IMG/VR virus record: IMGVR_UViG_2541047941_000006
Source: a virus
Lineage: Duplodnaviria > Heunggongvirae > Uroviricota > Caudoviricetes
Direction: 5' to 3' (one strand)
Length of the DNA stretch: 23,448 nt
Shown: in pieces, positions 1 to 16,117 of the stretch
Position numbering within the stretch: the first letter of the stretch is position 1
Layout of the letters: every line of letters begins with the position of its first letter
The notes under the pieces: model-generated
Databases searched by the model: none
What the model was told of the DNA's origin: nothing
The model's input: the letters and a program-made list of their open reading frames with translations, nothing else
Position numbers and translations under genes: made by a program

Positions 1-1158
1 ATGCTCACCGTTAAGCAGATTGAAGCAGCAAAGCCGAAAGAAAAACCATACCGCCTTCTCGATGGTAATGGCCTGTACCTTTATGTTCCTGTATCCGGGA
101 AAAAGGTATGGCAGCTTCGCTACAAGATTGACGGTAAGGAGAAAATCCTGACCGTCGGAAAATATCCGCTTATGACTTTGCAGGAAGCAAGGGATAAGGC
201 ATGGACTGCGAGGAAAGACATCTCGGTTGGCATCGATCCGGTAAAGGCGAAAAAGGCTTCGTCTAACAACAATTCATTTAGTGCGATTTACAAGGAATGG
301 TACGAGCACAAGAAGCAAGTCTGGTCAGTAGGCTATGCAACTGAACTTGCCAAAATGTTTGATGACGACATTTTACCCATCATCGGCGGTCTTGAGATTC
401 AGGATATTGAGCCGATGCAACTGCTGGAAGTAATCCGCAGATTTGAAGATCGCGGTGCAATGGAGCGAGCCAACAAAGCCCGCAGAAGATGCGGCGAGGT
501 TTTTCGTTACGCTATTGTCACCGGAAGGGCTAAATATAACCCGGCACCTGACCTTGCAGACGCCATGAAAGGATACCGCAAGAAGAACTTCCCGTTCCTT
601 CCAGCAGACCAGATGCCTGCATTCAACAAAGCACTGGCAACATTTTCAGGAAGTATCGTATCGCTCATTGCGACAAAAGTTTTACGTTATACAGCCCTAA
701 GAACGAAAGAGCTTCGTTCCATGCTATGGAAGAACGTCGATTTTGAAAACAGGATTATCACCATCGACGCCAGTGTGATGAAGGGACGCAAAATTCATGT
801 GGTCCCGATGTCAGACCAGGTGGTTGAACTTCTCACTACGCTAAGCTCAATCACCAAACCAGTCTCAGAGTTTGTTTTTGCCGGGCGCAACGATAAGAAG
901 AAGCCAATCTGCGAGAACGCGGTATTGCTTGTGATCAAACAAATCGGCTATGAAGGTCTGGAAAGCGGTCACGGATTCAGGCATGAATTCAGCACGATTA
1001 TGAACGAGCACGAATGGCCTGCTGACGCTATTGAAGTGCAGCTGGCACATGCCAACGGCGGATCTGTGCGCGGTATTTACAACCATGCTCAGTATCTCGA
1101 TAAGCGCAGAGAAATGATGCAGTGGTGGGCGGATTGGCTTGATGAAAAAGTGGAGTAA
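1..1158 (+). CDS. intS: Tyrosine recombinase / prophage integrase, P4-type (IntS-like, KplE1/CPS-53 family)
   Basis: 385-aa ORF starting at base 1; N-terminal KPKEKPYRLLDGNGLYLYV motif typical of P4-family integrases and a C-terminal catalytic region (HGFRHEF ... RGIYNH, the catalytic Tyr lying in the last motif). Recalled as matching E. coli IntS; paired with a TorI-like excisionase and tRNA-derived att core at the other end of the element. Confidence 0.85.
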   Translation: MLTVKQIEAAKPKEKPYRLLDGNGLYLYVPVSGKKVWQLRYKIDGKEKILTVGKYPLMTLQEARDKAWTARKDISVGIDPVKAKKASSNNNSFSAIYKEWYEHKKQVWSVGYATELAKMFDDDILPIIGGLEIQDIEPMQLLEVIRRFEDRGAMERANKARRRCGEVFRYAIVTGRAKYNPAPDLADAMKGYRKKNFPFLPADQMPAFNKALATFSGSIVSLIATKVLRYTALRTKELRSMLWKNVDFENRIITIDASVMKGRKIHVVPMSDQVVELLTTLSSITKPVSEFVFAGRNDKKKPICENAVLLVIKQIGYEGLESGHGFRHEFSTIMNEHEWPADAIEVQLAHANGGSVRGIYNHAQYLDKRREMMQWWADWLDEKVE

Positions 1159-1367
1159 TCCGGACCGTACTTCTTTATCCAGGCATAAAGGCTGTGGGTG
1201 GTGATATCGAGACGTGTTGCAACGCTGGCAACAGAATAACCGCGATCAACAACCTGTTTGACTGCTTCAGTTTTAAACTCTTCGGGATAACGCTTACCGC
1301 TCATGGGCACCTCTCTTTAAGCCATCTTAAATGACTCTGAGGTGTCTGTTAAACCCGTGGCGATTCA
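1159..1367 (-). mobile_element. IS3-family IS fragment (left end plus 5' part of orfA), truncated exactly at the intS stop codon
   Basis: Minus-strand ORF begins MSGKRYPEEFKTEAVKQVVDRGYSVASVATRLDITTHSLYAWIKKYGPD (HTH-type OrfA N-terminus) with RBS AGAGAGGTG upstream; similarity ends at about 1159, where the frame reads through the intS 3' end. The minus-strand terminus begins TGAATCG at 1367. Confidence 0.6.
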
Positions 1368-1370
1368 AAA

Positions 1371-1820
1371 CTGCGTGTTACGTTCGCCCTGGACTGTTGC
1401 GATCGTGAAGCCATAGACTGGGCCGCAAGCACGGGAGGTTACGATAAAGCGACAGTGCAGGATGTCATGTTAGGAGCGATAGAAAAACGCTTTGGCGATA
1501 AAGTACCGGAACAGTCCATCCAGTGGCTGACAGATAACGGTTCAGCGTATAGAGCGCATGAAACACGGCAGTTCGCCAGAGAGTTGAATCTGGAGCCCTG
1601 CACAACGGCAATCAGCAGTCCTCAGAGTAATGGAATGGCAGAAAGGTTCGTGAAAACGATGAAGGAAGACTACATCGCGTTCATGCCGAAACCGAATGTA
1701 AGAACGGCATTGCATAATCTTGCAGTGGCGATCGAACATTACAATGAAAACCATCCGCACAGTGCGTTGGGTTATCGCTCTCCGCGAGAATATCGACGTC
1801 AGCGGGTAACGTTAACTTAA
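1371..1820 (+). pseudogene. IS2-like (IS3 family) transposase OrfB, C-terminal DDE fragment
   Basis: In-frame translation from 1371 gives [14 protein letters not shown]...[25 protein letters not shown]...[26 protein letters not shown]...[14 protein letters not shown], the conserved C-terminal half of IS2-type OrfB. No orfA or N-terminal part is present in the same orientation; an IS2-like right terminal repeat follows to about 1852. Confidence 0.7.
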
Positions 1821-1861
1821 GATACACCCCCTGTCTGGAAATAAGGGGGCAAGAACAATGA

Positions 1862-2614
1862 TCAGATTCCCTGGTGAGTAAGAATTTTACTTTCTGAACT
1901 CCTCTGAGAGTATTGACTTGGAGAAACACCAAAATAACGTCTAAATACATAAGTAAAGTATGAGACACTGGCATAACCACAGACCTTAGCTACTTTACTA
2001 ATAGGATAACAACGAGTGCTGAGTAAATATTCAGCCATTTGCATCCTCTCATCAAGTATGATCTTACTGAATGATACCCCCTCTTCTTTCAATTTCATCT
2101 TTAGTAAACTTTCGCTGAGATATAATCTTGATGATATATCCTTAAGACGCCATGATGCAGATAAATCCGTATGAATAATCGTTTTAACTTTAGCCCCTGT
2201 GCTTTTCAAACATCCAAACAGAAATACTCCAAATTGTTTTTCAGAAGAAAATGCAGAGAGACATGTAAAAGCAATAGACTCATCAAAAATTTCTATGTAT
2301 TCAGCACAGTGATTAGCCCAACTAATTAATCCTTTAATTAAACTGAAGTCAGCAAAGTTTATTTTTAAATAAGATGGATATTCCCTACAATCAGAAATAC
2401 CCCTTAAGTTATTAGCTTTCAAATAGCGACTAATAAACTCAGCGCCAAAATCCGCCACTATCACTCTTTCAGGATATGTCAGGAAAAAATCTCTAGAGCT
2501 AGAGTCGACAAGTACAGATGAACCTCTCTCCAGAAACACACTCTCTTTTCCGAAATAAACATCAAAGGACTCCAAAATCAATATAACTGAACATGTAGTT
2601 GCCATATCATCCAC
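1862..2614 (-). CDS. AraC/XylS-family transcriptional regulator (AppY/EnvY-like), low-GC cargo
   Basis: 250-aa ORF; C-terminal double HTH signature (WRLKDISSRLYLSESLLKMKLKEEGVSFSKIILDERMQMAEYLL...KVAKVCGYASVSYFTYVFRRYFGVSPSQY); AT-rich coding and upstream region; flanked by the IS2-like fragment and IS1. Confidence 0.8.
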   Translation of the reverse strand: MDDMATTCSVILILESFDVYFGKESVFLERGSSVLVDSSSRDFFLTYPERVIVADFGAEFISRYLKANNLRGISDCREYPSYLKINFADFSLIKGLISWANHCAEYIEIFDESIAFTCLSAFSSEKQFGVFLFGCLKSTGAKVKTIIHTDLSASWRLKDISSRLYLSESLLKMKLKEEGVSFSKIILDERMQMAEYLLSTRCYPISKVAKVCGYASVSYFTYVFRRYFGVSPSQYSQRSSESKILTHQGI

Positions 2615-2826
2615 CCAATTTAACTGAAACCAGGATGAAGTATATGCATATAAAGTTCACTTTGCCAAACTTCAGTATAAAAAACCACATAAAAAATAGG
2701 GTGTGATAAAAAATACCGTAACAATAAAGCAAAGGATTATAAAATCCGTTACAGTTACAAATGATACTCAAGAAACAATTCCTTAGGAAAAACTTATTTA
2801 CAGCCAATAAGGGTAATGACTCCAAC

Positions 2827-3330
2827 TTATTGATAGTGTTTTATGTTCAGATAATGCCCGATGACTTTGTCATGCAGCTCCACCGATTTTGAGAACGACA
2901 GCGACTTCCGTCCCAGCCGTGCCAGGTGCTGCCTCAGATTCAGGTTATGCCGCTCAATTCGCTGCGTATATCGCTTGCTGATTACGTGCAGCTTTCCCTT
3001 CAGGCGGGATTCATACAGCGGCCAGCCATCCGTCATCCATATCACCACGTCAAAGGGTGACAGCAGGCTCATAAGACGCCCCAGCGTCGCCATAGTGCGT
3101 TCACCGAATACGTGCGCAACAACCGTCTTCCGGAGACTGTCATACGCGTAAAACAGCCAGCGCTGGCGCGATTTAGCCCCGACATAGCCCCACTGTTCGT
3201 CCATTTCCGCGCAGACGATGACGTCACTGCCCGGCTGTATGCGCGAGGTTACCGACTGCGGCCTGAGTTTTTTAAGTGACGTAAAATCGTGTTGAGGCCA
3301 ACGCCCATAATGCGGGCTGTTGCCCGGCAT
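2827..3330 (-). CDS. insB: IS1 InsB (expressed as InsAB' by -1 frameshift)
   Basis: 167-aa ORF overlapping the insA 3' end in the -1 frame, canonical IS1 arrangement. Confidence 0.85.
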
Positions 3331-3524
3331 CCAACGCCATTCATGGCCATATCAATGATTTTCTGGTGCGTACCGGGTTGAGAAGCGGTGTAAGTGAACT
3401 GCAGTTGCCATGTTTTACGGCAGTGAGAGCAGAGATAGCGCTGATGTCCGGCGGTGCTTTTGTCGTTACGCACCACCCCGTCAGTAGCTGAACAGGAGGG
3501 ACAGCTGATAGAAACAGAAGCCAC
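3249..3524 (-). CDS. insA: IS1 InsA
   Basis: 91-aa [46 protein letters not shown]... with zinc-finger and HTH, canonical IS1 InsA. Confidence 0.9.
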
Positions 3525-3673
3525 TGGAGCATCTCAAAAACACCATCATACACTAAATCAGTAAGTTGGCAGCATCACCGGTCGCCACCATATACGGCAG
3601 TTCTCAGGCTCAACTTTCTGAAAGGCTCGGGTGATGTAATATGCGCGTGAGATGCGCTGTGAAATTCAGATGT

Positions 3674-3697
3674 AAAAAAAGCCCCGCATCGCGAGGC
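3674..3697 (-). terminator. Putative intrinsic terminator downstream of Rz
   Basis: On the minus strand GCCUCGC-GAU-GCGGGGC hairpin (one G-U pair) followed by UUUUUUU, about 30 nt after the Rz stop. Confidence 0.45.
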
Positions 3698-3729
3698 TCA
3701 TTAAATGGACTTTGTGATTTGCAAAAAAA

Positions 3730-4188
3730 TTATTTCAGGCATTGCGTCCTGATGTATTCCTGCAGGTAGTTAACCTGCGCGGTTATCTTGTCGATTCCAC
3801 TTCGGAGACGGTAATAATTGAGTTCAGCATCTGCTGTAAGTCCTGGGCTTTCTCCATCGCCCATGCCGCTGGCTCCGGTCGTTGACTTTGCACAGGTGGC
3901 GGCGACTTGCAGGCGCTTACGCCCAGCAGAAACATCAGCACGGAGACTTTCGATAGTCGCGTTAGCATCAGCAAGCTCCTTTGTGTATCTTGCGTCGAGT
4001 TCTGCTACATCACGTTGACGCTTCCGCATGTCAGCGATGGTGGCGTTCGCCTTCTCCAGTTCACTGGCCTTGTTATCGCGCTGCTCTTTGTAGGCGATTG
4101 CGTTATCACGGTAATGATTAACAGCCCATGACAGGCAGACGATGATGCAGATAACCAGAGCATAAATAATCGCGGCGACTCTGCTCAC
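3730..4188 (-). CDS. Rz: Rz inner-membrane spanin (i-spanin)
   Basis: ORF with N-terminal TMD ([28 protein letters not shown]) and coiled-coil-like body, closely resembling lambda Rz. Probable GTG start at 4188 (track ORF starts at TTG 4203); overlaps the endolysin stop. Confidence 0.8.
3783..3974 (-). CDS. Rz1: Rz1 outer-membrane lipoprotein spanin (o-spanin), embedded in Rz +1 frame
   Basis: 63-aa ORF wholly inside Rz; signal peptide with lipobox LLGVSAC followed by a Pro-rich segment ([16 protein letters not shown]), classic Rz1. Confidence 0.7.
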
Positions 4189-4718
4189 TGATCTATCCCC
4201 CAACAGGCTAATGCGCTTTCCTGGTCACGACGAATAACCTGTCCATAGCAGTTATTTGAACGTATGCGGCAATCGCGCCCACCATCTTTTATCCACCAGC
4301 GAATCGCCTCGCATGCACCTTTACGATCACCGGCATTCAGCCGCTTATAAAACGTCGACGGGAAACACTTACCGGGGCCAATGTTATAGGGACAAAATGA
4401 CGCGATACCCGCTTTCTGTGGTTCGGTCAGTGGCACTTTAATATTGCGCTCCACCCATGCCAGCGCCTTATCCCGTTCAATGGCGTTAACCTGGTCGCAT
4501 TTTTCCTTCGACAGTTTCATACCGGGAAAAACGGGTTTTCCATCCACCACCGTGGCACCCCGACAGATGGTCCAGATGCCGGAACCATCGCGGTATGCCG
4601 TTGTGTGGTTACCTTCTTTTTCATCCAGAAACTGGTCGAGAATATCAGGCGCAGGCGCACCGACGGCAATCAGTGCCAGAACGGCAGCCGACAGGCCGTA
4701 TCTGATTTTTGCGTTCAT
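4185..4718 (-). CDS. R: Phage endolysin (lysozyme), probable SAR type, RrrQ-like
   Basis: 177-aa ORF; weakly hydrophobic Ala/Gly-rich N-terminus ([17 protein letters not shown]) ahead of the catalytic domain; sits between the pinholin/ydfR-like genes and Rz. Confidence 0.85.
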
Positions 4719-5061
4719 GGATATTTATCAGGATTTATCGGTTTCTGAACCCTGGATATGTTTATCTGTCCCGGCCTGTTGAATCAGGCAAGGAATAGTT
4801 AAATACAATAGAGAGGATTGTTTATGGACAATAGCACCATTTCTCTACAGGAGTTGCTCGACTGCATTTCCAAGCTTCGGGATGATGTAAATGCCCTTAC
4901 TGTCGCATTTTAATATCTGGCATTCTCAATTCCCAAGGAACAAATGCAACCAACACTGGCATCGCTCCAGCTTGAATCACTCAACCCCAAATGGTCCCAG
5001 CAACAACAAAATTCTTTCAAGTGGCTGGCGGTATTACTGGAAGAAAAATATGCTGGTGAAA

Positions 5062-7486: not shown

Positions 7487-7870
7487 TTAATTAGAGTTAT
7501 TAACAACGATATCCATCTCTAACCGGATATCTAATGCCATTAACATCCCTTCAATTATGCCCTCAGCCTTCTGTAACCTTTTCCCGATATAACCATCAGA
7601 GCAGCGATGCTTACCTGCCAGTGACATGAATGTCATACCGACTACATAATAATCTACTAATAAATCGTGCAAATCGCTGTTGTTCTTTTTCAGACGGGCC
7701 ATGCACCCGCAAATGATCATCGCGTCATCGTCACAACATTGCGGGCGAGATTTTACTTTTGAAGTAATTAATCCCTTAAAACCGGCGGCAATGGACGACC
7801 AGGTCACATCTTCATGATTATTAGCCGCCCACGCTCCCCAACGCTCAAGAACCATCTGAATATCACGCAT
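7487..7870 (-). CDS. quuD: Late-gene antitermination protein Q (Q82/QuuD type)
   Basis: 127 aa from ATG 7870 (RBS GGAG 8 nt upstream; track ORF starts at an upstream TTG): [24 protein letters not shown]...[20 protein letters not shown]...; positioned upstream of the lysis cassette. Confidence 0.8.
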
Positions 7871-7955
7871 CAACTTACTCCACAAAAATCAGACCAGAAC
7901 GCCAATTACAAGCAAAAATCAACAAAACAGTATTAGTTGATTGTTATCTCTGACT

Positions 7956-9359: not shown

Positions 9360-9547
9360 GCTTCACCTCCGCAGAGGTCAAACGCTAGATGCAAAGAATT
9401 GCAGGTGCATTTCTGCATCAGTGAAGGGAGAAGAGAGTTTGGATTGTATGTGCGCATAAACGTCCCCGTTTAGCGCAGAAGTCACCGGAGTTGTTCAGGC
9501 TCCGAGGACATTATTATTGCTGGTTGATAATGGAAAATCAAAGCTTA

Positions 9548-10582: not shown

Positions 10583-11280
10583 GCTCTTGCTCCTTTCAGC
10601 CCAAACTTAGCTTTGATTTCTGCGATCTTCGCCAGAGCCTGTGTACGATTTAGAGGTCTACCGCCCATGACAGGAAGTTGTTTTACTGGTTCAGGGATCG
10701 CCTCACCACGGTTAATTCTCGCAGTCATATGGACAAGCTCATCTGCGGCCTTACGGCGTAATTCCGCATCAGTAAGCGCATTGGCCCGCATGTTCTGATA
10801 CAGGTTGGTAACCAGCCAGTAGTGCGCGTTTGATTTCCACGGATAAGACTCCGCATCCGGATACAGGCCTCGCTTCCGGCAATACTCGTAAACCATATCA
10901 ACCAGCTCGCTGACGTTTGGCAGTCCGGCGATAACGGATGCTTCTTCCCGGCACCATGCAACAAACTGCCCGGGTGATGGCAGGAATGGTCGATTCTGCC
11001 GACGGGCTACGCGCATTCCTGCGTTAACCTGTTCCATTGTGGTGATCCCGTTTTCCCGGAAAGCCAGAACCCACTGGCGGCGGATTTCGTTCAGTTCGTT
11101 CTGATCCCGGTTAGCCAGGCTCGCCGGGAAAGTTGCCAGTAACTGGCTGAACACACCGTTGATGATCTGCGCTACCTGCTGTACCTGCGGCTTTTCGTCG
11201 TACTGTTCCGGCATGTTGTTGGCGATCCGACGCATCTGCTCACGGTCAAAGTTAACCATCTGTGCGGCGATGTTTTTCAT
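10579..11280 (-). CDS. P: Replication protein P (DnaB helicase loader), lambda type
   Basis: 233 aa MKNIAAQMVNFDREQMRRIANNMPEQYDEKPQVQQVAQIINGVFSQLL..., near-identical to recalled lambda P; ATGA overlaps with O and ren. Confidence 0.9.
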   Translation of the reverse strand: MKNIAAQMVNFDREQMRRIANNMPEQYDEKPQVQQVAQIINGVFSQLLATFPASLANRDQNELNEIRRQWVLAFRENGITTMEQVNAGMRVARRQNRPFLPSPGQFVAWCREEASVIAGLPNVSELVDMVYEYCRKRGLYPDAESYPWKSNAHYWLVTNLYQNMRANALTDAELRRKAADELVHMTARINRGEAIPEPVKQLPVMGGRPLNRTQALAKIAEIKAKFGLKGARA

Positions 11281-12206
11281 AAATCCACCCCGTAAATCCA
11301 GTCAGTGTTCGTCAGGTCGAGTTTTGGTTTGCCGGCTGTCACGCCAGCCTGTTGCTTGTTTCGGTTGATTTCGAGCTGGGTCCACTTGTCGCGGAGTTTG
11401 GCCGGACTCAGCACGTTACCGGACCAGAAGTTGTCCTGGCATGCCCAGCGGAACAGCACGCACATGTCGCGGTGGTTACGTCCGTCACGTTCACGCATCA
11501 GGCGGATATCGTTAGCCCACCCTGCAAAATTCGGTTTTCTGGCTGAGGGCGCGATGGTCTTCACCATGTCAAACATCCACTCTGCGGCGGTCAGGTCTTC
11601 TGCTGTCCCCCACTTGCTGCCGCTCTGAATTGCAGCATCTGGTTTCACCACAGGAAGATCGTTTTCTGGTTGGTCAGAGGATTCGCCAGAATTCTCGGAC
11701 GAAAAAGGTTTTATATTGTCTTTTGTTAGTTTGTCTTTTGTGTTTACCTGATTCGGGTAAACGCCTTTACCTGATTTGGGTAAACTTTTCTTACCTGATT
11801 CAGGTAAATTTACCTCTTTCAGGTAAACTTTATTTTTCTTACCTGATTCGGGTAATGTTGCCCATTCACTGACCACATTATTAATACCGATATTCCGCCC
11901 GCTCTGAATCAAAATCCCACGCTTTACCAGAACACTTTTTGCAGCAGAACACTTGTGCGGCAATATCCCGGTCAATTCGGACAGTTGCTCGTTGCTCACC
12001 CAATCCAGTTTTTTATTAAAGCCATATGTTTTGCGCATGACAGCCAGGAAGACCAGAAGCTGGTGCTGTGTTAATCCGGCCAGCATCACAGCTTCCAGCA
12101 ACTCATTTGCAATGCGCGTATAACCATCATCGAGATCTGCCACGCGCGGCTCCTTTTGTGCCGCATCCGGCACTGGAAAATTGAATATCTCAGCAGTGTT
12201 TGCCAT
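11277..12206 (-). CDS. O: Replication initiator O (lambdoid, non-lambda iteron specificity)
   Basis: Start reassigned to ATG 12206 (MANTAEIFNFPVPD...) with RBS GGGAGGAATT; N-terminal domain is O-like, the linker encodes the iterons (LPESGKK repeats), and the C-terminal domain matches lambda O, consistent with the lambda-type P. Confidence 0.85.
   Translation of the reverse strand: MANTAEIFNFPVPDAAQKEPRVADLDDGYTRIANELLEAVMLAGLTQHQLLVFLAVMRKTYGFNKKLDWVSNEQLSELTGILPHKCSAAKSVLVKRGILIQSGRNIGINNVVSEWATLPESGKKNKVYLKEVNLPESGKKSLPKSGKGVYPNQVNTKDKLTKDNIKPFSSENSGESSDQPENDLPVVKPDAAIQSGSKWGTAEDLTAAEWMFDMVKTIAPSARKPNFAGWANDIRLMRERDGRNHRDMCVLFRWACQDNFWSGNVLSPAKLRDKWTQLEINRNKQQAGVTAGKPKLDLTNTDWIYGVDL
11744..11855. 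repeat. Origin of replication: five 17-bp palindromic iterons inside the O gene
   Basis: TTACCTGATTCGGGTAA at 11744, 11767, 11791, 11810 (variant TTACCTCTTTCAGGTAA) and 11839; flanked at about 11700-11742 by an AT-rich stretch (GTTTTATATTGTCTTTTGTTAGTTTGTCTTTTG). Confidence 0.8.
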
Positions 12207-12292
12207 AATTCCTCCCGCAATGAGTGTGTTACGATTTGCACCTGAAAGTCGGTTCTGTTCCCGCAGACCGACTTTCGCCATTTCTGAACCTG

Positions 12293-12832
12293 TCATATTG
12301 CCCCCAGCATGGTGGTCACCATCGCCATTAATGGACCAGCCAGATCCGGGTCCACACGAAACATCGACACAATACCTTCACTCATTTCCTTCAGTTTCTG
12401 GTGGCGTGGTGCGTTGAGAATGACAGCCTGTTTTGCCTCACTGAGTTCCTTTTCCATTTCAGCCAACCGAGTCATGAAGCTATCCTGCTCAACCAGGTAA
12501 CCGCGATATTCCAGCGGTAGTACCGCCAGAATTGCCGGGGTCAGTTCACGCACGTTATTTCGGTATTTTTCAGAATCGAATTTGTTATCGAGGAAGCGGA
12601 ACAGCTTCTGGCGTGCACGACTGACATCATCAGGGAAATCGATGGTGCCGCCGCCCTGCTCCCGATACTCATTCACAATGAGTGCGGCAACAACATCCTG
12701 ATTATCTGCAGCCGACCAGGCGCGAACGGCATCACGGATTTTTTCGTGGCCTGCCGCCTGTTTTGTTTGAGAACGATTTATCAGCGCAGCCGGGGTAATT
12801 CCGCTAGTCTGTTGGTATGTAATTGGTTGCAT
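12293..12832 (-). CDS. YdaT-like protein in the cII position
   Basis: 179-aa ORF directly downstream of cro with RBS AAGGA; roughly twice the size of lambda CII; tentatively the YdaT family that accompanies YdaS/Cro-like genes in Rac-type immunity regions. Confidence 0.55.
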   Translation of the reverse strand: MQPITYQQTSGITPAALINRSQTKQAAGHEKIRDAVRAWSAADNQDVVAALIVNEYREQGGGTIDFPDDVSRARQKLFRFLDNKFDSEKYRNNVRELTPAILAVLPLEYRGYLVEQDSFMTRLAEMEKELSEAKQAVILNAPRHQKLKEMSEGIVSMFRVDPDLAGPLMAMVTTMLGAI

Positions 12833-12892
12833 AATTAATTCCTTTAGTTTGAATTGACTGTTAATCAGTCTGTTAAGTTGATTGCTTATTGT

Positions 12893-12901
12893 TAAAGAGC
12901 G
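12893..12901 (-). promoter_or_regulatory. boxA-like element (candidate nutR) between cro and the YdaT-like gene
   Basis: Minus-strand CGCTCTTTA matches the boxA consensus; a small hairpin GACUG-AUUAA-CAGUC lies 22 nt downstream (12856-12870) as a possible boxB. Confidence 0.35.
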
Positions 12902-12913
12902 TGAAATGGAAAT

Positions 12914-13144
12914 TTAAGCTGCGTTCTTTTCGGTGTGTGGAAACAACTTCGGAAGGTCCGGGCGAATCTGGTATGCCTTCACAACTCCACCAGTAGCCGT
13001 AACAATGCTGCCGACATGTTCAGGGGATACCTTTGCTTTGTTGTGAAGCCACTTATAGACGGCCTGCTGTGAAACTTCGCAGGCATCGCCCAGTTTCTTT
13101 TGTGAACCAACGATATTGATCGCTGTTTTGATTGCTGGGTTCAT
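12914..13144 (-). CDS. cro: Cro-like repressor (YdaS/Cro family HTH)
   Basis: 76-aa ORF divergent from cI with RBS GGAGG; HTH segment QKKLGDACEVSQQAVYKWL. Confidence 0.8.
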   Translation of the reverse strand: MNPAIKTAINIVGSQKKLGDACEVSQQAVYKWLHNKAKVSPEHVGSIVTATGGVVKAYQIRPDLPKLFPHTEKNAA

Positions 13145-13158
13145 AACAACCTCCGTGG

Positions 13159-13207
13159 TTAATCTGAATCAAGATTAAAACTATGGTTGTTTTTAGTCAA
13201 CAACCAT
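13159..13207. promoter_or_regulatory. OR operator region with two palindromes, overlapping the PR promoter for cro
   Basis: Perfect palindromes ATGGTTGTT-N7-AACAACCAT (13183-13207) and TTAATCT-N6-AGATTAA (13159-13178); minus-strand -35 TTGACT (13195-13200) and -10 TAATCT (13172-13177) ahead of cro. Confidence 0.5.
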
Positions 13208-13213
13208 TTTCGT

Positions 13214-13242
13214 TTGATGTAATAAAACCCTGGTTGTACATT
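13214..13242 (+). promoter_or_regulatory. Putative PRM promoter giving a leaderless cI transcript
   Basis: -35 TTGATG (13214-13219), 17-bp spacer, -10 TACATT (13237-13242), then 6 nt to the cI ATG at 13249; no SD sequence. Confidence 0.4.
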
Positions 13243-13248
13243 TGGTCT

Positions 13249-13938
13249 ATGAAAACAACACTCTCAGAAAGACTTAAAGAAGCCAGATTAGCGCGAGGCC
13301 TTACACAAAAGGCGCTTGGGGATTTGGTCGGGGTTAGCCAAGCTGCTATTCAGAAAATCGAAACAGGGAAAGCTAACCAAACAACTAAAATCGTGGAGAT
13401 CGCGAACGCTTTGGGTGTGCGCGCAGAATGGTTATCTTCTGGCGTTGGAAATATGTCAGACAGTACAGTGCAACCAATACAATCAACTGTCAGCCATTCC
13501 AAATACTTTAAGATTGACGTTCTTGATATAGAAGTGAGTGCCGGGCCGGGAGTCATCAACCGTGAGTTTGTAGAAGTTCTACGCTCGGTTGAGTACTCGT
13601 TTGACGATGCTCGTCACATGTTCGATGGTAGGAAGGCAGAAAATATCCGCATCATTAACGTGCGTGGTGACAGCATGTCAGGAACGATCGAACCAGGTGA
13701 TCTGCTGTTCGTTGATATCACGGTTAAATCTTTCGACGGTGATGGTATCTATGCGTTTCTGTATGACGACACAGCCCATGTAAAGCGCCTGCAAATGATG
13801 AAGGATAAGCTGCTGGTTATCTCTGATAACAAAAGCTACTCACCGTGGGACCCGATCGAGAAAGATGAGATGAACCGGGTATTTATCTTCGGGAAAGTTA
13901 TTGGGAGCATGCCGCAGACGTATAGGAAGCATGGATAG
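13249..13938 (+). CDS. cI: CI-type prophage repressor (HTH plus S24 LexA-like autopeptidase domain)
   Basis: 229 aa from ATG 13249 (track ORF starts upstream at 13183); N-terminal HTH (LTQKALGDLVGVSQAAIQKIETGK); C-terminal peptidase motifs (VRGDSMSGTIEPGDLLFVD ... HVKRLQ). Confidence 0.85.
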   Translation: MKTTLSERLKEARLARGLTQKALGDLVGVSQAAIQKIETGKANQTTKIVEIANALGVRAEWLSSGVGNMSDSTVQPIQSTVSHSKYFKIDVLDIEVSAGPGVINREFVEVLRSVEYSFDDARHMFDGRKAENIRIINVRGDSMSGTIEPGDLLFVDITVKSFDGDGIYAFLYDDTAHVKRLQMMKDKLLVISDNKSYSPWDPIEKDEMNRVFIFGKVIGSMPQTYRKHG

Positions 13939-14006: not shown

Positions 14007-15080
14007 ATGGAGAACTTAATGGATACTTTAAAATATGAGAAATTCTCTGATTTTGATCACAATGACCCATTTTTTGACTCTTTAAAAAAAGATTATAAAG
14101 AGTTTCCTCTTTGGTTAGAAAAAAAAGCCAGAGAAGGAGAATCAGCTTATGTGCTCTATGATGACAAGCATAAAATCGAAGGTTTTATGTATCTAAAAGA
14201 AAATGATGATGCAAATGACATTAATCCAGCGCTCCCACCAGGACGTCATCTAAAGATAGGAACATTCAAATTTGAATCTAAAGGCACCCTTCGCGGACAA
14301 CGATTTCTAAAAAAAGCGTTTGACCATGCATTTTCATCAAAATCTGATGATATTTATGTTACTGTTTTCGACAAACACGTCCATCTAATAAAACTTTTCC
14401 AAACGTACGGATTTTACATTCATGGTGAAAAAGAAACACATAACGGGAAAGAGTTTGTATATGCGAGGTCTTTGCATGAGCCTTATGGTGATATTTTATT
14501 AGATTACCCTCGAATAATGACATCAAGGGCCAACAAATATTTACTGGCGATTTATCCCGAATATCACACTAGACTATTCCCTGATTCAAAACTTGTAAAT
14601 GAATCACCAGATATTGTCAAAGATATATCCCATGCTAACAGCATTCATAAAATTTACATATGTGGAATGCGTTCTGTGATGGGAATGAAAAGAGGAGATA
14701 TCATTGTCATCTATAGAACCGGAGACAAAAAAGGGCCAGCTCGCTATCGTTCTGTAGCCAGTACATTATGTGTAGTTGAGAGCGTAAAAAATATTTCTGA
14801 ATTTTTAAGCGAAGATAGTTTTGTAGACTATTGTATTCGTTTTAGCGTATTTTCTGAAGATGAACTCAGAAAAATCTATAAAGAACGTCGATACCCTTTC
14901 ATTATAAGATTCACATACAATCTGTCTTTGCCAAAGAGACCCAATCGTGCTATTTTAATAGATCATGTGGGGCTAAATGGTTCGCGTGCATTCCGATGGA
15001 GTCACTTTAAACTCACAAATGAGCAGTTCTTAAAGATCATCGAGTTAGGCAAGATAAATGAAAGTTTTATTATCCATTAA
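14007..15080 (+). CDS. Hypothetical 357-aa protein: N-terminal GNAT-like acyltransferase region fused to a C-terminal PUA-like region (candidate exclusion/defence effector)
   Basis: Long AT-rich ORF directly downstream of cI (rexA position); GNAT-like motifs by eye (GTLRGQRFLKKAFDHAF; LFQTYGFYIHGE); C-terminal segment with PUA/ASCH-like strands (LLAIYPEYHTRLF; KRGDIIVIYRTGD). More likely start is ATG 14019 (GGAG 6 nt upstream). Domain calls are unverified. Confidence 0.7.
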   Translation: MENLMDTLKYEKFSDFDHNDPFFDSLKKDYKEFPLWLEKKAREGESAYVLYDDKHKIEGFMYLKENDDANDINPALPPGRHLKIGTFKFESKGTLRGQRFLKKAFDHAFSSKSDDIYVTVFDKHVHLIKLFQTYGFYIHGEKETHNGKEFVYARSLHEPYGDILLDYPRIMTSRANKYLLAIYPEYHTRLFPDSKLVNESPDIVKDISHANSIHKIYICGMRSVMGMKRGDIIVIYRTGDKKGPARYRSVASTLCVVESVKNISEFLSEDSFVDYCIRFSVFSEDELRKIYKERRYPFIIRFTYNLSLPKRPNRAILIDHVGLNGSRAFRWSHFKLTNEQFLKIIELGKINESFIIH

Positions 15081-15435
15081 GCCTGAGTTTGCAGAAAAAA
15101 TATTGAACGGAACAAAGCGGTTCGAGTTTCGTAAAGGTATATTCAAAAATCCGCAAATTAGCACCGTTGTTATTTATGCCACGATGCCATTAGGTAAAGT
15201 TGTTGGTCAATTCCGTATTGAATCAATACTAAGTGACGAACCGGAATCTCTTTGGAAAAAGACGGAAAAACACGCAGGTATTTCTAAGCAATTTTATGAC
15301 TCATATTATTCAGGTAGAGAAAAGGCCTACGCAATAAAAATTGGTGAAGTGGAAAGATATAAAGAACCAATTCCTATCTCTGCTCTAGGGAGTAATATTA
15401 AGCCACCACAATCATATCTTTACCTACCTGCGTAA
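15058..15435 (+). CDS. ASCH-domain (PUA-like) protein, 125 aa, translationally coupled to the upstream gene
   Basis: N-terminus MKVLLSIKPEFAEKILNGTKRFEFRK matches the ASCH beta1/GxKxxExR signature; start overlaps the upstream gene by 23 nt; AT-rich. Confidence 0.7.
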   Translation: MKVLLSIKPEFAEKILNGTKRFEFRKGIFKNPQISTVVIYATMPLGKVVGQFRIESILSDEPESLWKKTEKHAGISKQFYDSYYSGREKAYAIKIGEVERYKEPIPISALGSNIKPPQSYLYLPA

Positions 15436-15466: not shown

Positions 15467-15590
15467 GTCCCCTCATCACACAAACCGTTCAAATAACCAC
15501 CACGACATCCCTTCAGTTATCGCTATGCGATGCAAGTCACAAAATAAATCCATCCTAAATACAACCAGTTATATCTAAAACAACCAGTAA

Positions 15591-15633
15591 AACAACTTTT
15601 GTTGTTGACGATAAAACAACTATAGTTTTAAAT
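15591..15633 (+). promoter_or_regulatory. OL operator / PL promoter region
   Basis: Palindrome AACAAC-TTTT-GTTGTT (15591-15606) shares the AACAAC half-site with OR; -35 TTGACG (15605-15610), 17-bp spacer, -10 TTAAAT (15628-15633); more AACAAC repeats at 15561-15620. Confidence 0.45.
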
Positions 15634-15739
15634 AAATTCATCGCAACAACACAACGATACGGCAACCACCTGATTCACCGTTGCGATGACCGCTTAGATC
15701 CGCAGCTTGAATTTCAGCAGGCTCCGGGGAGTGCGAGGG

Positions 15740-16117
15740 GTGAAGCGGACGCGTGAACGTCGGTGTGACCAGCTGAAATCAACTCAACACTTCATACCTC
15801 AGTCGCTTCAACGAGGCGGCTTAGTTATGACAACCGGCGGCCATCCACCGCCTGAATACGCGCAGAAGTCTATATATGTTCAGCAGCCCAGCTTACGGGC
15901 AGGAGTTTTTATGGTTCATCAACATTACGGAACGCAGACCGTTAATCGCGGTGCGGTCATGCCAGGAATGCTGGTCAAACACAAAGATGGTACCTGGACT
16001 GCATCAGCTAATTTACGCGGACGACTTTATCTGCATCGCGGCATTGAGCGCACTTATACCCGTGACTTGCTCGTGGAAGTTTTTCTCGACGGACGCGGCA
16101 ACGGTCTGAATCACTAA
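15740..16117 (+). CDS. Possible N-like antiterminator (arginine-rich motif), start uncertain
   Basis: ORF in the first position of the PL operon; in-frame GTG at 15740 preceded by GGGGAG gives an N-terminus MKRTRERRCDQLKS resembling the lambda N arginine-rich motif; rest is basic and low-complexity. The first in-frame ATG with a strong RBS is at 15908, which would give a 69-aa protein instead. Confidence 0.35.
   Translation: MKRTRERRCDQLKSTQHFIPQSLQRGGLVMTTGGHPPPEYAQKSIYVQQPSLRAGVFMVHQHYGTQTVNRGAVMPGMLVKHKDGTWTASANLRGRLYLHRGIERTYTRDLLVEVFLDGRGNGLNH

Follow-up and report, generated by a model that had tools for sequence, protein, structure and literature searches.

The 23,448-nt stretch of viral DNA considered here (the window; Caudoviricetes, IMG/VR record IMGVR_UViG_2541047941_000006) carries behind its cro-like gene an open reading frame of 179 codons, which raises the question of whether this gene takes the part that CII plays in phage lambda and, if so, at which site and promoter its product would act. 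The ORF at 12293..12832 (minus strand) comprises exactly 179 codons plus stop, begins with ATG and is preceded by a Shine-Dalgarno sequence (AAGGA, 12840..12844, minus strand) located 7 nt 5' of the start codon. It lies directly 3' of a cro-equivalent gene encoding a 76-aa HTH protein of the YdaS type (12914..13144, minus strand; Pfam YdaS_toxin at E 6.6e-17 and, weakly, P22_Cro at E 7e-05), whose counterpart in phage PhiR47_2 is annotated Cro, is divergent from a cI-type repressor gene with the Pfam domains HTH_3 and Peptidase_S24 (13183..13938, plus strand) and is followed by lambda-type O and P genes (Pfam Phage_rep_O at E 1.6e-34 and Phage_lambda_P at E 5.3e-62). The true start of cI is likely the ATG at 13249; in PhiR47_2, cI is annotated as 690 nt. 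With cro before it, O and P behind it and cI divergent, the 179-aa gene therefore sits in the lambdoid cII slot, as the first-pass annotation had proposed, and the latter's estimate that the product is about twice the size of lambda CII agrees with the actual lengths of 179 versus 97 aa (1.85-fold). The neighbourhood is collinear with that of PhiR47_2, annotated there as cI / Cro / cII / O / P, and the order cI / cro (YdaS) / 179-aa gene / M3-oop-like RNA / O / P is the same as in phi80. Moreover, the module is very common, the DNA of positions 12200-13200 being present in 2222 of 5426 complete E. coli genomes (about 40%), where the PGAP name of the product is 'toxin YdaT domain-containing protein'. 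In total, 713 homologues of the 179-aa protein were found at E<=1e-3, so that a chance ORF can be discounted, and the family is narrow, with only 142 clusters (50% identity) reaching this threshold among 1.84 billion representatives.

The O ORF (11277-12296) overlaps the stop codon of the cII-type gene at its ATG at 12296 and is usually annotated from there (1020 nt, as in PhiR47_2). The PHROG 277 alignment begins at residue 31 of this ORF (12206), a Met codon with a GGAGG Shine-Dalgarno sequence, and the true start of the replication initiator O (11277..12206, minus strand) is probably this Met31, leaving the first 30 codons untranslated. As the homology of O starts only at Met31, an 86-nt spacer remains between cII and O. 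The first 30 codons of the ORF cover a predicted oop/M3-like antisense RNA (12216..12286, plus strand), for which promoter scan, inverted repeat, fold and comparison with phi80 were considered. The unit, contained within 12181-12292, shows a promoter TTGAAT-17-CATAAT (12181-12209) overlapping the O start, a perfect 10-bp inverted repeat in a stem-loop at 12244-12276 (fold at -24.6 kcal/mol, z -3.65) and a T-rich tail. In position, it corresponds to the annotated M3 RNA of phi80 ('homolog of lambda oop RNA') and to the M3-like RNA of HK639, the stem sequences being different. A scan of the whole window at Rfam gathering thresholds gave no matches, so that the assignment as oop/M3-like RNA comes from the phi80 comparison only.

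On the other side of the gene, the 81-bp spacer to cro contains the only exact copy in the window of a boxA-like element, CGCTCTTTAACAA (12889..12901, minus strand), which we take to be a near-perfect boxA of the rrn/lambda type. A hairpin GACTG-TTAAT-CAGTC (5-bp stem, 5-nt loop; 12856-12870) follows 18 nt after CGCTCTTTAACAA, and both elements together may constitute nutR. A second boxA copy (nutL) was not found in the window, nor was an obvious N gene after PL; in the ORF at 15707-16117, an N-terminus rich in Arg (RTRERR) is joined in frame with a Kil-like domain. Repeated AAAACAAC and ATGGTTGT motifs are present in both 13150-13240 and 15560-15640, which are likely the CI/Cro operators, a palindrome ATGGTTGTT-N7-AACAACCAT is located at 13183-13207, and a promoter TTGACG-17-TATAGT near 15605-15633 has a PL-like look. 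Besides, the rexAB slot downstream of cI (14007-15435, plus strand) is occupied by a two-gene candidate defence system with PADLOC matches to PDC-M11A (E 2e-133) and PDC-M11B (E 7e-52), whose counterparts in PhiR47_2 are annotated as GevT toxin and GevA antitoxin.

The protein encoded in the cII slot belongs to a family that is already known and well studied. It matches Pfam PF06254 (YdaT_toxin, formerly DUF1019) with 104.6 bits versus a gathering cut-off of 21 (E 3.9e-30, profile positions 1-90 of 92), a profile also matched by phi80 CII at E 2.7e-28, and PHROG 163, 'CII-like transcriptional activator', at E 5e-67. By tblastn, 44 records among phage genomes match the 179-aa protein, with 92-96% identity to the annotated cII of coliphages 4A7, Lambda_4C10, D2, 1W, Perceval, Turner and the PhiR series, 66% to cII of phage phi80 and about 51% to cII of HK639/HK225, while BLASTP aligns Rac YdaT at 35% identity over the DNA-binding domain (E 2e-12). 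With a profile of 33 homologues, the YdaT structures 8bt1 (CP-933P YdaT, E 1.5e-07) and 3c4r (E 1.7e-06) were recovered from the PDB. Lambda CII, aligned to a profile of the family, was assigned an hhalign probability of 0.2%, showing no detectable similarity. The lambda CII sequence used for this matches Pfam Phage_CII at E 1e-48; the 179-aa protein has no match to this Pfam family (PF05269). Hence, membership in the YdaT family and the lack of resemblance to lambda CII, both asserted in the first-pass annotation, are corroborated, the former also at the level of the predicted fold. PF06254 fits the phi80-type long forms (E 1e-28 to 1e-30, 90 of 92 positions) far better than Rac YdaT, which is matched at E 1.8e-11 and only at profile positions 6-66. 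The name 'YdaT_toxin' is misleading on two counts, and the current RefSeq name of K-12 YdaT is 'DNA binding transcriptional activator'.

An AF2 model of the 179-aa protein based on the 50-sequence alignment reaches a mean pLDDT of 80, this alignment including Rac-type sequences, before whose inclusion a shallower alignment had given a pLDDT of 56. In the model, residues 1-26 are disordered, five helices extend across 28-113, and further helices are placed at 119-138, 143-160 and 162-177. Predicted domains are an N-terminal extension (1-26), a POU-like HTH (27-113) with the recognition helix at 70-82 bearing Arg79, and three C-terminal helices (119-177); the protein would thus possess the all-alpha POU-like HTH plus long oligomerisation helix. 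Foldseek against the PDB returned only 3c4r and 8bt1 (probability 1.0, TM 0.62-0.65 on target, about 120 aligned columns), the rest being noise. Arg79 aligns with Arg60 of CP-933P YdaT and Arg57 of Rac YdaT, both essential for DNA binding, and at least 90% of the sequences in the 50-sequence alignment, which contains long as well as short forms, keep this Arg. Short family members (about 140 aa) align only from profile position 27 onward, and the first 26 residues therefore represent an extension peculiar to the phi80-type long form. At the other end, many short-form YdaTs terminate with a His after a hydrophobic residue (...VH, ...LH, ...IH) and the long forms with a conserved hydrophobic helix (PLMxMVTxMLG); by analogy with the C-terminal tail of lambda CII, either ending could be a determinant of stability or degradation.

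What proteins of this family do has been established with relatives. YdaS and YdaT were proposed to be equivalents of Cro and CII by context (Casjens, 2003; Jobling, PMC5917428). The YdaT of CP-933P is a non-toxic homologue of phi80 CII, is no partner in a toxin-antitoxin (TA) pair and switches on the otherwise silent promoter PRE933P (Jurenas et al., PMC8630535). Its structure consists of a POU-like HTH and a 29-residue helix forming a four-helix bundle in the tetramer, and it footprints at TTGATT-N6-AATCAA at the ydaS/ydaT junction, a box described as 'downstream' of PRE933P (Prolic-Kalinsek et al., PMC9986795). In the Rac prophage, the box ATGATT-N6-AATCAA spans the ydaT start codon, YdaT raises racR (repressor-directed) transcription 29-fold, and Rac and CP-933P YdaT, 30% identical, cross-recognise their sites (Wons et al., PMC11879457). 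In view of this published function, the question of the gene's role is largely answered and the TA reading is obsolete. The verdict of the first-pass annotation that the role is unclear can thus not be upheld, as the published YdaT work shows a CII analogue activating a PRE-like promoter (PMC8630535, PMC11879457); of the two views of the family it mentioned, the one as CII-like regulators stands (PMC8630535, PMC11879457), while the one as toxin-antitoxin pairs has been rejected (PMC5917428, PMC8630535). The 179-aa ORF very probably represents an intact, ordinary activator of the phi80-CII/YdaT type with a CII-type role.

Since the published box is absent in canonical form from the window, 50 non-redundant homologous loci (48-96% protein identity, collected from one-genome-per-species contigs and phages) were compared for identifying the site at which this activator may bind. 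The sense strand of codons 17-22 follows the pattern NTGAT(A/T)-N6-NNTCAN in these loci, with TGAT and TCA being invariant and residues 17, 21 and 22 varying. Codons 16-22, lying within the protein-variable N-terminal extension, show the lowest third-position entropy of the whole gene, and third positions conserved to at least 96% amount to 4 of 21 in codons 2-22 versus 5 of 157 elsewhere. Ile18 is encoded by the rare codon ATA in 42 and by ATT in eight of the 50 loci, but never by ATC, although the latter accounts for 58% of Ile codons elsewhere in these genes. The conservation of codons 17-22 could partly be due to protein constraint. From this DNA-level conservation and the published consensus (PMC9986795, PMC11879457), a YdaT/CII box is predicted at 12767..12784 (plus strand), reading TTGAGA-ACGATT-TATCAG on the plus and CTGATA-AATCGT-TCTCAA on the sense strand and agreeing with TTGATT-N6-AATCAA at 8 of 12 specified positions, the TTGA and ATCA cores included. 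This element is the putative binding site of the 179-aa protein.

The distance from this box to a second element is likewise conserved. In all long-form loci, TAnnnT is found exactly 20 nt past the box on the antisense strand (TAGTCT in the window, TATTGT in phi80), and the three codons underneath encode varying amino acids. The same 20-nt spacing is present in short-form loci that cannot be aligned with the former, with TATGAT in Rac and in a CP-933P-like phage, TAGCAT in a Klebsiella phage, TAACAT in an Aeromonas phage and TATGCT, TAACCT, TAGGCT and TATGAT in IMG/VR contigs. Among 23 divergent lineages, in which the 42 nt following the box are less than 60% identical, TAnnnT occurs at offset 20 in 20 and at offset 21 in two, one lineage having CATTGT, compared to between zero and two of the 23 at other offsets. 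Judged from the sequences, this pattern is typical of a sigma-70 -10 element kept at constant distance from the site of an activator. The predicted -10 hexamer of a PRE-like, activator-dependent promoter in the window is thus TAGTCT at 12805..12810 (plus strand); a recognisable -35 was not found at this position. We regard the specific site together with this promoter geometry as somewhat favoured.

The composite of box, 20 nt and TAnnnT occurs once in the 23.4-kb window, so that no counterpart of PI or PaQ (a second box plus promoter) is seen in the window, also not opposite the Q-like gene. A box-like site at 7856-7873, antisense to the 5' end of Q, was considered as PaQ analogue and rejected, having no -10 at 20-21 nt. 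The mismatch-tolerant search for the published box (up to 3 mismatches) did not flag 12767-12784 itself; TTGATT-N6-AATCAA with up to 3 mismatches gave 25 matches in the window versus 19.6 expected. Among them, 9524-9541 (1 mismatch) and 13155-13172 (2 mismatches, between cro and cI) were dismissed, both being individually non-significant and lacking a -10 at the conserved spacing. TTGATT-like half-sites in the cro-cII spacer (12849-12883) were also dropped as main operator because the 81-bp spacer is not shared with phi80, HK639 and mEp237; the nutR-like element of boxA and hairpin fits this sequence better. With a PWM built from 21 homologous boxes, only the self site scored above shuffles, but the PWM is uninformative on additional sites because its spacer columns carry coding signal. 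The lambda-type direct repeat TTGC-N6-TTGC is absent from the cro-cII junction, and its two matches in the window (1710 and 17461) are far from the latter and do not exceed chance expectation.

Tetramer formation, box binding and PRE activation are known from the literature on homologues; together with the family, predicted fold, gene context, DNA conservation of the box and fixed distance between box and -10 derived in this analysis, they suggest the following course of events. Transcribed from PR behind cro, the gene would be expressed early, and by homology its 179-aa product may assemble into a tetramer via its C-terminal helices. Its POU-like HTH, with recognition helix 70-82 and Arg79, would bind an imperfect inverted repeat of the TTGATT-N6-AATCAA type, for which the gene's own codons 17-22 (12767-12784) are the best candidate. 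From there, the bound protein may activate the opposite-strand promoter with -10 TAGTCT at 12805-12810 and a transcription start near 12817, in a class-II arrangement with the box centred near -41.5; this geometry, as well as the exact site and promoter in the window, is what we infer. The transcript would run antisense through the ribosome-binding site of cII and through cro into cI and could thus bring about repressor establishment, as known from lambda PRE.

In Rac and other short-form loci, the box overlaps the start codon and the -10 is located 20 nt away on the antisense strand. Short-form YdaTs almost all start with M(K/E)IKHE, since the AATCAA half-site corresponds to their codons 2-4. 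That all regulators of the YdaT/phi80-CII type use one architecture, namely a coding-embedded 18-bp box, 20 nt, a TAnnnT -10 and class-II activation from near -41.5, is a proposition for which we consider the chances to be even. If true, it would account for the invariant M(K/E)IKHE with which the short forms start and for the I-N-R-x-Q motif with its rare ATA codon in the long forms, the 26-aa extension of the phi80 type would have arisen by growth of the ORF across its own operator and promoter, and the YdaT-dependent promoter of Rac would be the box-adjacent TATGAT instead of PracR4 about 190 bp away. Such a box-adjacent Rac promoter may have been overlooked, the published model placing activation about 190 bp away.

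The latter model also provides the best-surviving alternative for the window, in which the 179-aa protein would be a CII analogue as well, but would activate a promoter lying farther off, within cro and some 190-200 bp from the box, with the box-adjacent TAnnnT being something else. In Rac, activation is attributed to PracR4, with the box lying about 190 bp upstream of this promoter (Wons et al., PMC11879457), and a promoter scan of the window indeed gives a promoter-like site inside cro, TTCACA-17-AACAAT (12978-13006, plus strand), on the correct strand and 194 bp from the box. However, this site agrees at only 9 of 12 positions, and the two promoter-like sites found in 11900-13400 compare with 1.9 expected from shuffles. 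The cro genes upstream of phi80-type cII belong to different families, so that a promoter inside cro cannot co-travel with cII, whereas the unit of box and TAnnnT (20-21 nt) does so in 22 of the 23 lineages, Rac with its TATGAT included. In addition, the Rac and CP-933P reporter fragments held the box-adjacent region too (PMC11879457; primers in the supplement of PMC8630535). Activation of a remote promoter is hence weighted lower than that of the box-adjacent one and appears rather unlikely.

Turning back to the CII-type role as such, the gene might be a decaying remnant in a defective prophage that has lost this role. The window does look rearranged: in its first part (1-4720), an integrase fragment (1-1158, plus strand), an unknown 250-aa gene and a transposase-like gene (2827-3330) adjoin the Rz/endolysin genes for lysis without intervening structural genes, as would be expected of a defective prophage (rearranged or truncated) or of a second element next to it. 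Nevertheless, decay of the 179-aa gene is very unlikely, as the ORF is full length and all 53 columns invariant in 33 homologues (window protein included) are therefore intact, deviations of the protein from the commonest allele are limited to about 5% of positions, the predicted box and -10 and the Shine-Dalgarno sequence are all intact, and near-identical modules are present in phages that have been grown on E. coli C and K-12. Finally, a YdaS/YdaT toxin-antitoxin pair or a repressor-checked toxin, with the 179-aa protein as growth inhibitor, is highly improbable: the family names in Pfam and RefSeq are still 'toxin YdaT' and 'toxin YdaS', and ectopically expressed Rac YdaT poisons cells and makes them filament (PMC5700377, PMC11879457), but the latter toxicity is accounted for by host rcsA, whose transcription Rac YdaT activates (PMC11879457), CP-933P YdaT is non-toxic and shows no TA behaviour together with its YdaS (PMC8630535), overproduced lambda CII is toxic as well (PMC5917428), the gene is embedded in a complete lambdoid immunity/replication module, the fold predicted by the model is that of an HTH transcription factor, and PADLOC gave no match for the YdaS/YdaT pair.

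For annotation, this means that the label 'toxin YdaT' in Pfam and RefSeq is misleading and that the gene is better described as encoding the lysogeny activator, of the CII type, in a phi80-like switch. The family is already documented by a crystal structure, reporter data and a defined operator, and near-identical copies are annotated cII in GenBank phages, so that the coding-embedded box and the family-wide spacing between box and -10 would be a modest refinement of published work and not a new kind of system. A box embedded at a fixed distance from the -10 would bear on the true YdaT-dependent PRE start in phages of the Rac, CP-933P and phi80 types.

Compared to known systems, lambda CII (PF05269) is a functional analogue, being a tetrameric HTH activator encoded at the same gene position, whose site is situated within its own gene, at the 5' end of the coding sequence, whose promoter runs antisense through cro to cI and whose gene is followed just downstream by an oop-type antisense RNA, as predicted for the window. 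In contrast to the inverted repeat of the YdaT type, lambda CII recognises the direct repeat TTGC-N6-TTGC, and it also drives PI and PaQ, for which the window shows no counterpart. Rac YdaT (b1358, 140 aa, E. coli K-12) shares family, slot and, as predicted, box type and the spacing between box and TAnnnT with the window gene, but is a short form, has His56, needed in the Rac protein, where the window protein has Phe78, and additionally binds the racR-ydaS intergenic region and the host rcsA promoter and is toxic (PMC11879457), traits that are not known for the phi80 type. Homologous POU-like HTH domains with a long helix are found in CP-933P YdaT (8BT1) and the homologue from E. coli CFT073 (3C4R), which likewise occupy the cII slot and are about 28% identical to the window protein over about 120 aligned residues, with the recognition-helix Arg kept. 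As predicted for the window, their box near the 5' end of the gene is followed by TATGAT/TAnnnT 20 nt off on the antisense strand. The 141-aa CP-933P protein, however, lacks the 26-aa N-terminal extension, so that its box overlaps the start codon instead of codons 17-22, and also the helices 143-160 and 162-177, and the candidate box of the window is more degenerate than that of CP-933P. The phi80 CII group, consisting of phi80 CII itself (cII, JX871397, 180 aa) and cII of 4A7, Lambda_4C10, D2, 1W, Perceval and PhiR, differs from the window in more diverged first 16 codons and in cro, cI and replication modules representing different mosaics; the cro-cII spacer is a conserved 30 bp in phi80, HK639 and CobraSix, compared to the 81 bp with the boxA-like element here. 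The genetics of phi80 cII was reportedly worked out by Ogawa et al. in 1988. Apart from these differences, the group has the same length and slot, the latter being defined by cro / cII / M3-oop-like RNA / O-like gene, and Pfam family, N-terminal extension with the predicted embedded box and C-terminal helices are all common to it and the window protein.
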